64,000 nt of DNA from Escherichia coli (GTDB taxonomy: Bacteria; Pseudomonadota; Gammaproteobacteria; Enterobacterales; Enterobacteriaceae), in NCBI RefSeq assembly GCF_003334255.1, contig NZ_QOWU01000020.1; one strand, given 5' to 3'. How positions within the stretch are numbered: position 1 is the stretch's first letter; every line of letters starts with the position of its first letter. A model generated the notes under the pieces. It did not search any database. It had not been told where the DNA came from and worked only from the letters and a program-made list of their open reading frames with translations. Positions 33,821 through 37,990 of this stretch are shown here, piece by piece. The translations under genes were made by a program, and so were the position numbers.

Positions 33821-34624
33821 TCAATAACTACCTTTTATGCGTGGCCCATTTTTGCCTGATTTAAACATCGCCAGTCGTTGATCCAGGGCATCGCTGTAGA
33901 GCATCGTGTCAACGCCAACAGCGACAAAGTTCGCTCCCCACGCCTGGCATTGCTGCGCCATATCAGGAGCCACAGCCAGAAAACCAGCCGCTTTACCCGC
34001 AGCACGGATCCGCCGAATACTGGTTTCAATAATTCGCTGCACTTCCGGGTGCCCGGCGTTATCCGGGTAGCCCAACGACGCAGAAAGATCCGCAGGTCCA
34101 ATAAACACGCCATCAATCCCTTCGACGTCGAGGATTTCGTCCAGGTTATCCAGTGCCGTTTTACTTTCCACCTGCACCAACAGACAAAGCGAATCGTTAA
34201 CTTGCGCCATGTAATTCTCAATGCGTCCCCAGCGCGCAGCCCGTGCCACACTGGCCCCGACACCACGCTCACCGTAGGGAGGATAGCGCGTGGCAGACAC
34301 CACCTGACGTGCCTGTTCGGCAGTATCGACCATCGGGATCAGTAGAGTTTGCGCGCCAATATCCAGGACTTGTTTAATCAGCGGTTTACTGCCTTCCACC
34401 GGACGGATCACGGGTTGGCTGGCATAGGGCGCTACCGCCTGTAGCTGATGATAAAGATCCTGAATGGTGTTTGGCGCGTGCTCCCCGTCAATCAGCAACC
34501 AGTCATAACCAGAAGTGGCGGCAATTTCTGCCATATAGGCAGTCGTTGAGCTTAACCACAGACCAATTTGCACTTCGCCCTTGCGTAAACGTTCTTTAAA
34601 GGGATTGCTTAATAATGCGTTCAT
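33821..34624 (-). CDS. rhmA: 2-keto-3-deoxy-L-rhamnonate aldolase
   Basis: Track ORF extends to 34927; start placed at [13 protein letters not shown] (267 aa); HpcH/HpaI aldolase family. Confidence 0.85.
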
Positions 34625-34641
34625 CGTGTTCCTTAACCTAT

Positions 34642-35931
34642 TTAATGATGTGCCACGTCGGTCTGCGCAACAGTGCGATTTACACGCAGAGTGAAAATAA
34701 TCAGCGAACCGATGACCGCCACCGCTGCCAGCGTCAGTAATCCCGCCGCATCGCTGGCAAATAACGTTTCTGCTTTCACGCGCAGGATCGGGGCAATAAA
34801 CCCGCCCACTGCACCAAACAGGTTTACAAAACCAATTCCCGCAGCCAGCGCCGTACCGGAAAGCAGTTGTGTCGGCATCGTCCAGAACACTGGCTGCACG
34901 GCAATAAACCCGATAGCTGCAACACACAGCGCTACGATCGCCATTACTGGAGAAAGCAGCCCGGACAGACCAATACCAATGCCCGCCGCCAGTAATGTCA
35001 GCGCTGCGACATTACGCCGTTCGCCGGTTTTATCGGAATAGCGCGGAATAAGCCAGGTCCCAAACAAGGCCGCAACCCACGGAATGGCGGTGACCACCGA
35101 CGCTGTAAAGCCCACTTTTGTTCCCAGCAATGCCGCAACCTGGGTCGGCAGGAAGAAAATTAATCCGTAAACCGCCACCTGAATGGTCAGGTAGATAATC
35201 GCTAGTTGCCAGACTCGGCCATTACGCAGCGCATCGCTCAGCCGAGAAGTCACTTTCTGTTGTTCTTCACTTGCCAGTTGATTGATAAGCAACGTTTTTT
35301 CTTGTTTACTCAGAAAACGTGCCTGCTCCGGTGTGTCATCAAGCCAAAAGAATGTGAATACCCCAGCACCGACTGCCAACAATCCTTCAATCACAAACAT
35401 CCAGAACCAGCCGGGATGCCCCATAAATCCATGCATCTCCAACAGCGCGCCGGAAAGCGGTGATCCCAGTGTTAACGCCAGCGGTGCGCCCATATAGAAC
35501 AGCCCCATAATGCTGGCGCGATTACGCTGCGGAAACCATTGCGAGGTGAGATAAATCATACCAGGGAAAAATCCGGCCTCCGCAGCACCAAGCAGAGTGC
35601 GAACTATCAGAAATTTCGCTTCAGTATCGGCCCATGCCATGGCTGCCGAAAGAAATCCCCACAGCAGTGTTGTCGTACCAATCCAGGTTCTGGCCCCCAG
35701 TTTGCGCATCAAAAGATTCGCCGGAACACCCAGAAACGCATATACCACAAAGAAAATGCCTGCTCCCAGCGCATAAGCTTCATTACTCAACCCGGTATCA
35801 ATCTGGTAGGTCTGTTTGGCAAAACCGATATTCGAACGGTCGAGAAACGCCAGCACATACAGCGCCAACATAAACGGAATTAAACGCACACGGTTTTTCT
35901 TCACCACGGCGTCAAGCAAAGCGGTGCTCAT
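34642..35931 (-). CDS. rhmT: L-rhamnonate MFS transporter
   Basis: Track ORF 34642..35970; start placed at [10 protein letters not shown] (429 aa); MFS topology. Confidence 0.8.
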
Positions 35932-35987
35932 AAAAAGCTCCTTAGAATATGTGGGCGTTACCGTTGTCACAGCAACGCCCGGAGTGA

Positions 35988-37205
35988 TTAGTGGCTGTAG
36001 GGGCGTTTCAAATTGCAGTCACGATTGAGTTCGACGCCAAAACCGGGTTTATCAAGCACTGATTTATGAATACGACCATTCACCGGAACCGGCTCATTGA
36101 GCAGAATCGGGTCAAACTGCGGACGCATCGTTGAACAATCCGGGCTGGTCATCAGGAATTCGCTGAATGGCGTATTGGTGAAGGTGATCACCGCATGGTG
36201 AGAGTAAACAGACGAACCGTGCGGCACCACCAGTTGCCCCCTGGATTTGGCGATTGCGGCAATTTCCACCAGCGTGGTTAAACCACCGCACCAGCCAACA
36301 TCCGGCTGCATAATGTCGATACCGGTTTCTGAAAGCGTACGAAAAGATTGCAGTGTGCCGTGGTGCTCACCGCTGGTGACCATCATTCCGACTGGCGCGT
36401 TGCGTTTCAGTTCGCGATAACTTTCATACTGCTGTGGCGGCAGGCACTCTTCGATCCATTTCAGGTTATAGGGCGCGCAAGCGTGGGCCAGTTTGGTCGC
36501 ATAGTTCACGTCCTGACTCATCCAGCAGTCGAGCATTAACCAGAAATCCTCACCGCATTTTTCACGCATATCCGCGACCATAGCGGCATCTTTGCGGATC
36601 CCCGCATCGCCATCATGTGGCCCCCAGTGCGTCGGCATTTTGCCACCGATAAAGCCCATCTCTTTTGCCAGATCCGGACGCGCACCTGTGGCGTAGAACT
36701 GAATCTCATCACGAACAGCGCCGCCTAAAAGTTTATAAACCGGAAGCCCGACCACTTTGCCGAACAGATCCCACAGAGCCAGATCGACACAAGAAATCGT
36801 ATTCATCACCAGGCCACCAGAGCCGGAGTAATACAGGGTGGCACTGAGCATTTGATCGTGGATCAGTTTGATATCACTGACACATTTACCCTCAATGAAA
36901 CGGTTAAGATGTTTTTCGACAATAAAACAGCCCATTTCACCGGCTGTCGAAACGGCGAATCCGGTCTGGCCGTTTTCTGCTTCGACTTCAACAACCAACG
37001 TGCCAAGAACGTTAATGCCAAATGACTGGCGTGACTGCTCGTAATCGCGGTATTTACTCATCGGGGTGGCAATATGATCGTCTATCCAGTGATTCGCCCC
37101 CTGGTCGTGATAATCACCGCCGCCAGCGCCTTTTTCTGCTGTCGCACCGCCAGTAAACCAGGCGCGAACCTGTTTAATTTTTGGTAGGGTCATGATGTTC
37201 TCCAT
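35988..37205 (-). CDS. rhmD: L-rhamnonate dehydratase (enolase superfamily)
   Basis: 405-aa ORF (alternative start MTLPKIK at 37193 would give 401 aa); mandelate racemase/enolase-type fold. Confidence 0.85.
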
Positions 37206-37207
37206 TG

Positions 37208-37990
37208 TTATGAGGCTTGTAAGTCAAAGGGACTTTTCCATCCCAACAGACGTGAAATATCCCTGGCGCAGGCAATGGCCTTGCCCGCCAGATAATCACG
37301 GTATTCTTCATTGATTTGTAAGCGGGTACCGACCACCGAGATCGCAGCGGTAAGCTCGTTATTGGCGTTAAACACCGGCGCAGCGACACAACGGACATCG
37401 GCGTAATCTTCGCCGTTGTCATAGCTCCAGCCCTGACGGCGAATACGCGCCAGTTCTTCGTGAAGTTGCTGTGGATGAGTAATCGTTGTGGGTGTCGCCT
37501 GCTCCCAGACCAGCCCTTCGATAATACTTTGCTGTACCGCTGCAGGTTGCCAGGCAAGCAGGCATTTACCTATTCCGGAGCGATAAAGCGAAAGGCTTTT
37601 TCCTTCATGGGAACGCACGCTGATAGTGGCTGATGACTCCACTTTCAAAATGTAATAAGCGCTGCCGTTATCAATAATCCCCAGGTGACATAACAGCCCG
37701 GTGGTATCCATCAGTTGCGTCAAACGCGGTCGAGCCAGTTCCCGGAGATCCATCTTGCTTAACGCATGACCGGAAAGCTCCACCAGCCTGGTCCACAAAC
37801 AAAAATTTTCCTGGTGATCAAGGCTAAGAAAACGCTGACGCCTGAGTTCATTAAGCAGCAAATAGGCCGTGCTTTTAGGGATTCCCAATGTGTCAATGAT
37901 CGTCGCAGCACTACAGGGGCCAATGCGGGCAATCAAATTGAGAATATCAATAGCCCGTGTCAGGGCGGGAACTTTGCTTGATTCCAACAT
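37208..37990 (-). CDS. rhmR: IclR-family transcriptional regulator of the rhm operon
   Basis: 260-aa ORF with N-terminal HTH and IclR effector domain. Confidence 0.8.

Follow-up and report, generated by a model that had tools for sequence, protein, structure and literature searches.

The closest described counterpart of the locus analysed here is the yfaX-rhmD-yfaV-yfaU operon of Escherichia coli K-12 MG1655 (b2248-b2245), whose products UniProt names RhmR, RhmD, RhmT and RhmA. Rakus and colleagues are said to have shown biochemically in 2008 that RhmD turns L-rhamnonate into 2-keto-3-deoxy-L-rhamnonate (KDR), and Rea and colleagues reportedly found in 2008 that RhmA cleaves KDR to pyruvate and L-lactaldehyde. 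The rhmRDTA operon of Salmonella enterica has genes of the same order and lengths (260/401/429/267 aa), encoding proteins 87–96% identical to those of E. coli; its RhmD has been crystallised (2GSH, 2P3Z, 3BOX, 3CXO and 3D46). The E. coli operon has been listed as yfaX-rhmD-yfaVU (PMC8743547), and a passage of PMC12445098 credits its reference 13 with showing the L-rhamnonate activity of K-12 RhmD, which is identical to the RhmD studied here. MG1655 curators label the remaining two proteins 'putative DNA-binding transcriptional regulator YfaX' and 'putative transporter YfaV'. Xylonate operons of the YjhI-YjhH-YjhG/XynR type likewise combine an IclR regulator and a transporter with a dehydratase and an aldolase that yield pyruvate and an aldehyde (PMC12445098), but they use a DHDPS-type aldolase, an IlvD-type dehydratase and another substrate. 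The genes called 'rhmA/rhmR' by Rodionova et al. (2013) come from Chloroflexus and are not related to these.

We analysed a 64,000-nucleotide stretch of E. coli DNA (hereafter the window), in which positions 33821–37990 carry four co-directional minus-strand genes. An earlier note had read these as an rhmRDTA L-rhamnonate operon encoding an IclR regulator, an enolase-superfamily dehydratase, an MFS transporter and an HpcH-type aldolase, and curated annotations, NCBIfam, Pfam and PDB matches all bear out this gene order and these protein families. The operon DNA differs from that of MG1655 b2245-b2248 at 2 of 4170 nt and is 100% identical in E. coli C and many other E. coli chromosomes. MG1655 has the genes in the same order, with the same lengths and neighbours, and the RhmD and RhmR proteins are identical between the two. 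DNA of the locus is present in 5411 of 5426 complete E. coli genomes. Gene coordinates were taken from the RefSeq annotation of the 100%-identical E. coli C and from the curated MG1655 record (Table 1). We are highly confident that positions 33821–37990 hold E. coli's chromosomal yfaX-rhmD-yfaV-yfaU (rhmRDTA) operon in intact form, with the trimmed ATG starts and the pathway proposed below; this is an already characterised sugar-acid operon, and the finding is correct but ordinary.

Table 1. Genes, naive open reading frames and candidate control features in and around the rhm operon (window coordinates).
Feature	Coordinates	Strand	Details
rhmR (yfaX), IclR-family transcriptional regulator	37208..37990	-	260 aa; ATG 37990; E. 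coli C and MG1655 annotation
rhmD (yfaW), L-rhamnonate dehydratase (predicted), enolase superfamily	35988..37193	-	401 aa; ATG 37193
rhmT (yfaV), MFS transporter	34642..35931	-	429 aa; ATG 35931
rhmA (yfaU)	33821..34624	-	267 aa; ATG 34624
Naive ORF	37208..37990	-	260 aa, ATG start
Naive ORF	35988..37205	-	405 aa, ATG start
Naive ORF	34642..35970	-	442 aa, GTG start
Naive ORF	33821..34927	-	368 aa, GTG start
Naive ORF, spurious	33835..34272	-	145 aa, other frame, within rhmA
Non-coding 'extension' of 368-aa ORF	34625..34927	-	open alternative frame over rhmT 3' end and 17-nt spacer
Stem-loop directly after rhmA stop, between convergent rhmA and ypaA	33788..33814	-	terminator scan: 10 pairs, 6 G-C
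Intercistronic stem-loop in 56-nt rhmD-rhmT spacer	35938..35984	-	inner 12-bp hairpin 35953..35980
Perfect palindrome TCCAGT-N7-ACTGGA	37998..38016	-	sole exact match in 64-kb window
Third TCCAGT half-site	37991..37996	-	abuts rhmR ATG
Upstream TCCAGT half-site in imperfect palindrome, rhmR promoter region	38083..38088	-	
CRP-like site cGTGc-GCTGAT-TCACA (candidate)	38106..38121	-	8/10 to TGTGA-N6-TCACA; conserved in Salmonella

The two enzymes could be aligned to characterised proteins. RhmD scored 820.2 bits over its full length against NCBIfam equivalog NF011968 (cut-off 393) and matched PDB entries 2i5q, 3d46 and 2p3z full length; residues 1–405 of the naive ORF aligned to 2i5q (E. coli) at E=6e-287 and to 3d46 (Salmonella) at E=8e-280. 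Identity to 2i5q is ~99%, with three substitutions in the printed alignment. In 405-aa numbering the protein contains D226, E252 and E280, reported by Rakus et al. (2008) to be the Mg2+ ligands, and H329, reportedly the single acid/base residue. The window RhmD is thus predicted to be an L-rhamnonate dehydratase. RhmA scored 593 bits against NCBIfam equivalog NF007521 (cut-off 441), and residues 102–368 of the naive ORF correspond to residues 1–267 of the crystallised YfaU (PDB 2VWS, 2VWT), with 266 of 267 identical. It contains H49 and R74, reportedly catalytic, and E153 and D179, reported by Rea et al. (2008) to be the metal ligands. Class II pyruvate aldolases of the HpaI/HpcH and GarL types (2V5J, 4B5S, 1DXE) share the HpcH/HpaI fold family with RhmA and align to it over its full length, but RhmA falls below the equivalog cut-offs for HpaI (356 vs 369) and GarL (257–261 vs 393–407) and exceeds only that of the KDR-aldolase model. 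At residue 227 the window RhmA has a derived Q in place of the L found in K-12, in four other E. coli strains and in Salmonella.

RhmT contains the Pfam MFS_1 domain (PF07690, residues 22–381, E=2.5e-48), and no substrate-defined NCBIfam subfamily passed its cut-off: the best match was the D-galactonate-transporter subfamily TIGR00893 (250.8 bits, cut-off 395), and HpaX reached 220.6 bits against 615. Its specificity for L-rhamnonate, like the regulatory role of RhmR for the operon, is suggested by gene context. RhmR has IclR_C (PF01614, E=6.9e-63) and HTH_IclR (PF09339, E=2.8e-08) domains, exceeded the cut-off of no NCBIfam equivalog and is 87% identical to its Salmonella orthologue.

Together, these assignments would give the following pathway. 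RhmT, an MFS permease of the anion:cation symporter type, would import L-rhamnonate; RhmD, a Mg2+-dependent enolase-superfamily dehydratase, would convert it to KDR; and RhmA, a divalent-metal class II aldolase of the HpcH/HpaI family, would split KDR into pyruvate and L-lactaldehyde. RhmR, encoded by the first gene, would control expression, probably via the TCCAGT-N7-ACTGGA palindrome that overlaps the rhmR ribosome-binding site. Alternatively, the physiological substrate may be one or more other 6-deoxy or L-sugar acids, or a mixture, with L-rhamnonate merely the best in vitro. In keeping with this, RhmD is reported by Rakus et al. (2008) to act also, at lower efficiency, on L-mannonate, L-lyxonate and D-gulonate, the operon is often lost (see below) and RhmT matches no substrate-specific equivalog. 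Moreover, EcoCyc curators class L-rhamnonate among the dead-end metabolites, those for which E. coli has no known source reaction (PMC3781023). This also counts against the pathway proposed above, as does the lack of an L-rhamnose 1-dehydrogenase or lactonase gene beside the E. coli rhm operon. Against another substrate, the equivalog models and crystal complexes are assigned to L-rhamnonate and KDR, and we consider this alternative improbable.

The naive longest-ORF calls disagree with this annotation at three of the four starts. According to the earlier note, the 368-aa rhmA and 442-aa rhmT ORFs are too long by 101 and 13 codons, respectively, and a 145-aa ORF over rhmA is spurious. We reach the same conclusions because of the curated annotations (267 and 429 aa), PDB 2VWS, Shine-Dalgarno (SD) strength, codon-position bias, and stops and frameshifts in other genomes. 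At the ribosome-binding sites, the anti-SD duplexes of the trimmed starts (-5.9 to -8.3 kcal/mol) are stronger than those of the long ones (+0.1 to -2.7 kcal/mol). The rhmA ATG is preceded by AAGGA (34634..34630) and has a duplex of -6.1 kcal/mol, vs -1.9 at GTG 34927, which lies inside rhmT; the rhmT ATG is preceded by AAGGAG (35943..35938) and has -8.3 kcal/mol, vs -2.7 at GTG 35970. For rhmR, GGAG (38000..37997) lies 6 nt upstream of the ATG (-5.9 kcal/mol).

Could the long forms of RhmA and RhmT nevertheless be real? The sole point in their favour is that both frames, GTG-initiated, are open in this strain. Neither GTG has an SD. Residues 1–101 of the 368-aa ORF align to no homologue in PDB or NCBIfam, and the frame of this extension contains a stop in EC958 and is shifted by a 1-nt deletion in EC556 and by an 8-nt insertion in Salmonella. 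Substitutions there track the rhmT frame: 49 of 62 variable sites in 34645..34927 fall on rhmT codon position 3 (position 1 of the extension), as do 8 of 11 within E. coli. The 13-codon rhmT extension has no in-frame start codon and an unrelated peptide in Salmonella, and it sits inside a conserved hairpin (see below). These comparative sequence data contradict the long forms, which we regard as already refuted and give almost no credence. The 145-aa ORF fares similarly, with 86 of 108 variable sites on its own codon position 2 (rhmA position 3), stops in the O157 strain NZRM4169 and in Salmonella, and no SD (duplex +1.9 kcal/mol). As part of the same strongly favoured reading as the operon identity and pathway, the real starts would be the ATGs at 37990, 37193, 35931 and 34624, with the longer ORFs being alternative frames open upstream by chance. 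The literature searched reported no native N-termini or ribosome-profiling starts for rhm genes, and a Ribo-RET preprint contained no rhm gene data.

A third overshoot, absent from the earlier note, concerns rhmD, where the naive ORF (405 aa, MENIM...) exceeds the curated 401 aa by 4 codons. We place this start at 37193 with some reserve, since the constructs used for crystallisation have the 405-aa form. Translation could instead begin at ATG 37205 (MENIMTLPK...): the ENIM residues are in PDB constructs 2i5q, 2p3z, 2gsh and 3d46, so the active recombinant enzyme is this longer form, and the upstream ATG is kept in Salmonella, where neither of the two nucleotide differences (AAC>AAT, ATC>ATT) alters a residue read in that frame. 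It lies 2 nt past the rhmR stop, making coupled re-initiation conceivable. However, ATG 37205 lacks an SD (+0.1 kcal/mol), whereas 37193 has a duplex of -6.4 kcal/mol with GGAG 6 nt upstream, a motif made by the four extension codons themselves. MG1655 (NP_416750.2) and PGAP use 401 aa, the second Met is where both the NCBIfam model and the Azotobacter orthologue 2oz3 begin, and EC556 has a nonsynonymous Ile to Ser change within the four-codon stretch. We consider the upstream start unlikely and retain 37193. Longest-ORF calling thus makes three of these four genes too long, an error that simple tests correct: how strong the SD is, on which codon position substitutions fall and whether the frame stays intact in relatives. 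The significance goes little beyond annotation hygiene.

The four genes are co-directional and separated by 14, 56 and 17 nt (rhmR-rhmD, rhmD-rhmT and rhmT-rhmA), their order is conserved across genera and a hairpin follows rhmA. From the gaps, the Salmonella gene order and the terminal hairpin, we predict a single transcription unit. The stem-loop after rhmA (fold -19.1 kcal/mol, z -3.1) is likely the operon terminator; terminator-like matches inside genes in a scan of 33600–38300 were at chance level (9 vs 5.5±2.0). The rhmD-rhmT spacer also folds strongly (-24.5 kcal/mol, z -5.0), its outer helix pairing CUCC with the rhmT GGAG, and Salmonella has an equivalent hairpin of different sequence (-21.1 kcal/mol, z -4.3). 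This conserved hairpin may tune translation of the transporter. An Rfam scan of 32000–40500 at E<=1 returned one chance miRNA match only (E=0.83).

A consensus scan of 33600–38300 for sigma-70 promoters found 0 sites vs 4.6 expected and so placed no promoter. Because a gSELEX RpoN peak had been published within the yfaX-yfaY spacer (PMC8743547), we searched for the sigma-54 consensus, which gave 113 matches in the whole window vs 129 expected. The nearest plausible site, TGGCACTGAATATGCT (38292..38307, minus strand), falls within the 3' end of yfaY; an approximate coordinate conversion puts it ~70 nt away from the published peak. It was statistically indistinguishable from chance and was set aside.

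The region upstream of rhmR contains several candidate control sites. The perfect palindrome and the extra half-site beside it (37991..38016) overlap the rhmR SD, and four TCCAGT half-sites within 120 bp form the densest such cluster in the window, vs 0.1 expected. In Salmonella the palindrome arms are identical and the spacer differs at 2 positions. As RNA, the palindrome folds at -17.8 kcal/mol, with a z of -3.7 in E. coli and -1.2 in Salmonella. The region is a candidate RhmR operator or, alternatively, an SD-sequestering RNA hairpin: RhmR may autoregulate through the palindrome and half-sites over its own SD and start, or the hairpin may mask the SD. The imperfect palindrome farther upstream, TCCAGTCTGCTGGA, is partly conserved in Salmonella as TCCACTCCGTTGGA. 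A by-eye reading of the E. coli/Salmonella alignment also picked out the CRP-like site, which we infer to be a candidate. The ChIP-exo study of Gao et al. (2021) included no YfaX data.

The operon had also been placed between two accessory loci. This holds for the glpC side, where rpnE-ypaA is variable, but not for the other, where yfaY-yfaZ-nudI-ais-arn occupies the same side of the operon in Salmonella. There, start codons, SDs, the rhmD-rhmT hairpin and the palindrome arms are conserved, the spacer between rhmT and rhmA has 8 additional nt and sseL stands in place of rpnE-ypaA. A 174-nt direct repeat, made of the 3' end of yfaY, flanks the Salmonella operon on both sides. A search for a second copy of this sequence in E. 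coli found none: each of 5419 genomes has it at a single place.

The operon is missing, wholly or in part, from about 30% of complete E. coli genomes and is therefore dispensable. Loss occurred by a 3864-bp deletion in ~23% of genomes and was IS200/IS605-linked in ~6%. A Campbell-type integration may have left the Salmonella yfaY-3' repeats as its scar, the cassette having later been shed repeatedly by E. coli lineages. Tentatively, and with the balance somewhat against it, the rhm cluster could be a dispensable, once-inserted cassette with its own uncharacterised control, comprising RhmR autoregulation and the rhmD-rhmT hairpin, and with an integration scar.

Three observations may interest work on E. 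coli sugar-acid metabolism and the pan-genome: the operon's presence/absence polymorphism, the candidate RhmR operator and a G115R change in K-12 RhmT. They leave the identity of the locus unchanged. Residue 115 of RhmT lies within a conserved LLGxxEAG stretch; R115 occurs in MG1655 alone and is lab-strain-specific, whereas the window RhmT has the ancestral G115.

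The four minus-strand rhm genes described in the earlier note (rhmRDTA, or yfaX-rhmD-yfaV-yfaU) were matched by the ORF list, by the PGAP annotation of an identical genome and by the curated MG1655 record; the locus is already known, and the observation of it was correct and careful. The operon lies between glpABC-rpnE-ypaA and yfaY-yfaZ-nudI-ais-arnB. The DNA here is E. coli chromosome: a 4.8-kb query of the region showed 100% identity in E. coli C, WG5 and further strains, and some part of it matched in 5422 of 5426 complete E. coli genomes. Within the operon only two nucleotides differ from MG1655, at 33945 (RhmA L227Q) and 35589 (RhmT R115G).

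Genes, ORFs and sites of the rhm region, with anti-Shine-Dalgarno (anti-SD) duplex energies at the candidate starts
Feature	Coordinates	Strand	Length	Start	Anti-SD duplex (kcal/mol)	Source
yfaU/rhmA	33821..34624	minus	267 aa	ATG 34624	-6.1	PGAP (identical genome) + curated MG1655
yfaV/rhmT	34642..35931	minus	429 aa	ATG 35931	-8.3	PGAP (identical genome) + curated MG1655
rhmD	35988..37193	minus	401 aa	ATG 37193	-6.4	PGAP (identical genome) + curated MG1655
yfaX/rhmR	37208..37990	minus	260 aa	ATG 37990	-5.9	PGAP (identical genome) + curated MG1655
naive ORF (long rhmA)	33821..34927	minus	368 aa	GTG 34927	-1.9	ORF list
naive ORF (long rhmT)	34642..35970	minus	442 aa	GTG 35970	-2.7	ORF list
naive ORF (long rhmD)	35988..37205	minus	405 aa	ATG 37205	+0.1	ORF list
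naive ORF	37208..37990	minus	260 aa			ORF list
naive ORF, alternative frame within 368-aa ORF	33835..34272		145 aa	GTG 34272	+1.9	ORF list
rpnE-ypaA locus	32683..33780
ypaA	33595..33780
TCCAGT-N7-ACTGGA palindrome	37998..38016
TGGCACTGAATATGCT	38292..38307	minus
deletion allele	34283..38146		3864 bp

The longest ORFs of rhmA and rhmT had been said to overshoot by 101 and 13 codons, and four independent tests (annotation, SD, selection and frame integrity) agreed on the trimmed starts. The shorter starts are those of both the PGAP and the curated MG1655 annotation. Pairing with the 16S tail (background mean -2.8 kcal/mol, with 8.7% of positions at or below -6) was stronger at the trimmed rhmA and rhmT ATGs than at the long GTGs. 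In an alignment of six E. coli alleles and Salmonella, 49 of the 62 variable sites in 34645..34927 were third positions of rhmT codons; read in the frame of the supposed RhmA extension, such sites are first positions. In EC958 this extension contains a stop; a 1-nt spacer deletion puts it out of frame in EC556, and an 8-nt insertion does so in Salmonella. We therefore rejected the 368-aa RhmA on its weak SD, the rhmT-frame substitution bias and these disruptions in relatives. The 442-aa RhmT was likewise rejected, its SD being weak and its extension having no in-frame start in Salmonella, where the peptide is unrelated. The 145-aa ORF proved spurious, as had been proposed: its start pairs poorly with the 16S tail, 86 of 108 variable sites lie at its own position 2 (rhmA position 3), and both Salmonella and an O157 strain have stops within it.

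The naive rhmD ORF, absent from the earlier note, also starts upstream of the curated start, by four codons (MENIM-TLPK). ENIM is included in all E. coli and Salmonella RhmD crystal constructs, and the upstream ATG is kept in Salmonella with synonymous differences only, but production of a 405-aa form from it seems unlikely: the four extra codons themselves build the SD GGAG, 6 nt before the second ATG, MG1655 and PGAP use the 401-aa form, and the second Met is where 2oz3, the Azotobacter orthologue, begins, as does the NCBIfam profile.

Alignment to characterised RhmA and RhmD bore out the gene assignments. Residues 1-267 of crystallised YfaU (2VWS) correspond to residues 102-368 of the 368-aa ORF with 266/267 identical, while residues 1-101 had no aligned PDB homologue; RhmD aligned end to end with 2i5q (E. 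coli) and with 3d46, 2p3z and 2gsh (Salmonella). RhmA scored 593 bits against the cut-off of 441 for the 2-keto-3-deoxy-L-rhamnonate (KDR) aldolase equivalog and fell below the HpaI and GarL equivalog cut-offs, and RhmD scored 820 bits against 393 for L-rhamnonate dehydratase. RhmD D226, E252, E280 and H329 (405-aa numbering) and RhmA H49, R74, E153 and D179 are all present; these are metal-ligand or catalytic residues, reportedly assigned by Rakus et al. 2008 for RhmD and Rea et al. 2008 for RhmA. RhmT is an MFS_1 protein (Pfam) with no substrate-specific NCBIfam model above cut-off, and RhmR carries HTH_IclR and IclR_C domains (Pfam). Published work on these proteins has shown that RhmD dehydrates L-rhamnonate to KDR and that RhmA cleaves KDR to pyruvate and L-lactaldehyde; RhmT would import L-rhamnonate and RhmR would sense a metabolite of the pathway. 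In EcoCyc, L-rhamnonate is curated as a dead-end metabolite (PMC3781023), which fits a supply by import.

RhmT residue 115, within a conserved LLGAAEAG stretch, is Arg in MG1655 alone and Gly in the window, four other E. coli and Salmonella, so K-12, the reference, may carry a variant or impaired allele of the transporter. RhmA residue 227 is Leu in K-12, four other E. coli, Salmonella and 2VWS; Gln227 is a derived allele common to the window, E. coli C, WG5 and others. In O157 NZRM4169, a 1-nt deletion at rhmA codon 7 (about window 34604) causes a frameshift, and PGAP rescues a 264-aa product from a non-canonical start (ATT, read from sequence), so in this strain rhmA could be either a pseudogene or a gene with an unusual initiation codon.

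The rhmR-rhmD, rhmD-rhmT and rhmT-rhmA gaps are 14, 56 and 17 nt, and a 10-bp stem lies directly 3' of rhmA, between convergent rhmA and ypaA. The 56-nt spacer holds a strong predicted hairpin (-24.5 kcal/mol, z -5.0), with an equivalent of different sequence in Salmonella (-21.1, z -4.3). The 219 nt upstream of rhmR contain blocks conserved with Salmonella, and a consensus scan found no sigma-70-like match there. The conserved blocks include a perfect palindrome, TCCAGT-N7-ACTGGA, which overlaps the rhmR SD and occurs once in the window; its arms are invariant in Salmonella and its spacer differs. Two extra TCCAGT half-sites bring the TCCAGT/ACTGGA count to four (37991..38016 and 38083..38088), the densest cluster in the window. 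We read the palindrome as the likely RhmR operator; our literature search found no description of the cluster as such. Alternatively, it could act as an RNA hairpin masking the rhmR SD, but this hairpin is weak in Salmonella (z -1.2). In a published gSELEX study, RNAP-sigma54 bound in the yfaX-yfaY spacer, and the unit is given as yfaX-rhmD-yfaVU (PMC8743547). A consensus search of the window yielded no statistically convincing -24/-12 element. One sigma-54-like match, TGGCACTGAATATGCT, within the yfaY 3' end, is indistinguishable from chance in the window and lies about 70 nt (coordinate conversion approximate) from the published RpoN peak of this unit (PMC8743547).

The operon had been placed between two accessory-looking loci, which held for one side. 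rpnE-ypaA, an Rpn toxin and small-antitoxin locus on the glpC side, is a tandem repeat that differs between E. coli strains and is replaced by sseL in Salmonella, whereas yfaY-yfaZ-nudI-ais-arn is syntenic in Salmonella and thus core genome, despite its G+C dip. ypaA duplicates the 3' end of rpnE in tandem (repeats 33398-33469 and 33581-33652, 97% identical) and is still a pseudogene in the MG1655 annotation; according to the literature, it encodes a second RpnE_S small-antitoxin copy, and Rpn is a toxin-antitoxin, anti-phage family. In the Salmonella enterica locus (L006), the yfaY 3' end forms a 174-nt direct repeat around the whole operon (4781-4954 and 9388-9561, 4607 nt start to start, 95% identical); its downstream copy is annotated as a 58-aa ORF, which shares 93% identity with the C-terminus of YfaY. 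None of the E. coli genomes searched has this repeat, which resembles a scar left by integration or duplication.

Across the 5426 complete E. coli genomes the operon is polymorphic and whole in only 70%: some part of it was found in 5411, at least 80% in one piece in 3821, rhmA-5'/rhmT sequence in 4172 and rhmD sequence in 3836. These per-query counts indicate that in ~1240 genomes (23%) the operon is reduced to a 462-bp remnant of the rhmA 3' end, joined 63 nt beyond the yfaY stop by a 3864-bp deletion with 1-nt microhomology; the left breakpoint was the same in eight of nine sampled genomes, and the ninth matches 3 nt less. Another ~336 genomes (6%) have lost rhmD and kept rhmA and rhmT, with IS200/IS605-family tnpA/tnpB at the junction in both genomes examined, and in further genomes IS1 or IS1203 interrupts rhmT. 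Beside this deletion-prone region, ~978 E. coli genomes carry a markedly divergent allele class of the yfaY 3' end (38205..38400), with just 90-95% identity to the window.
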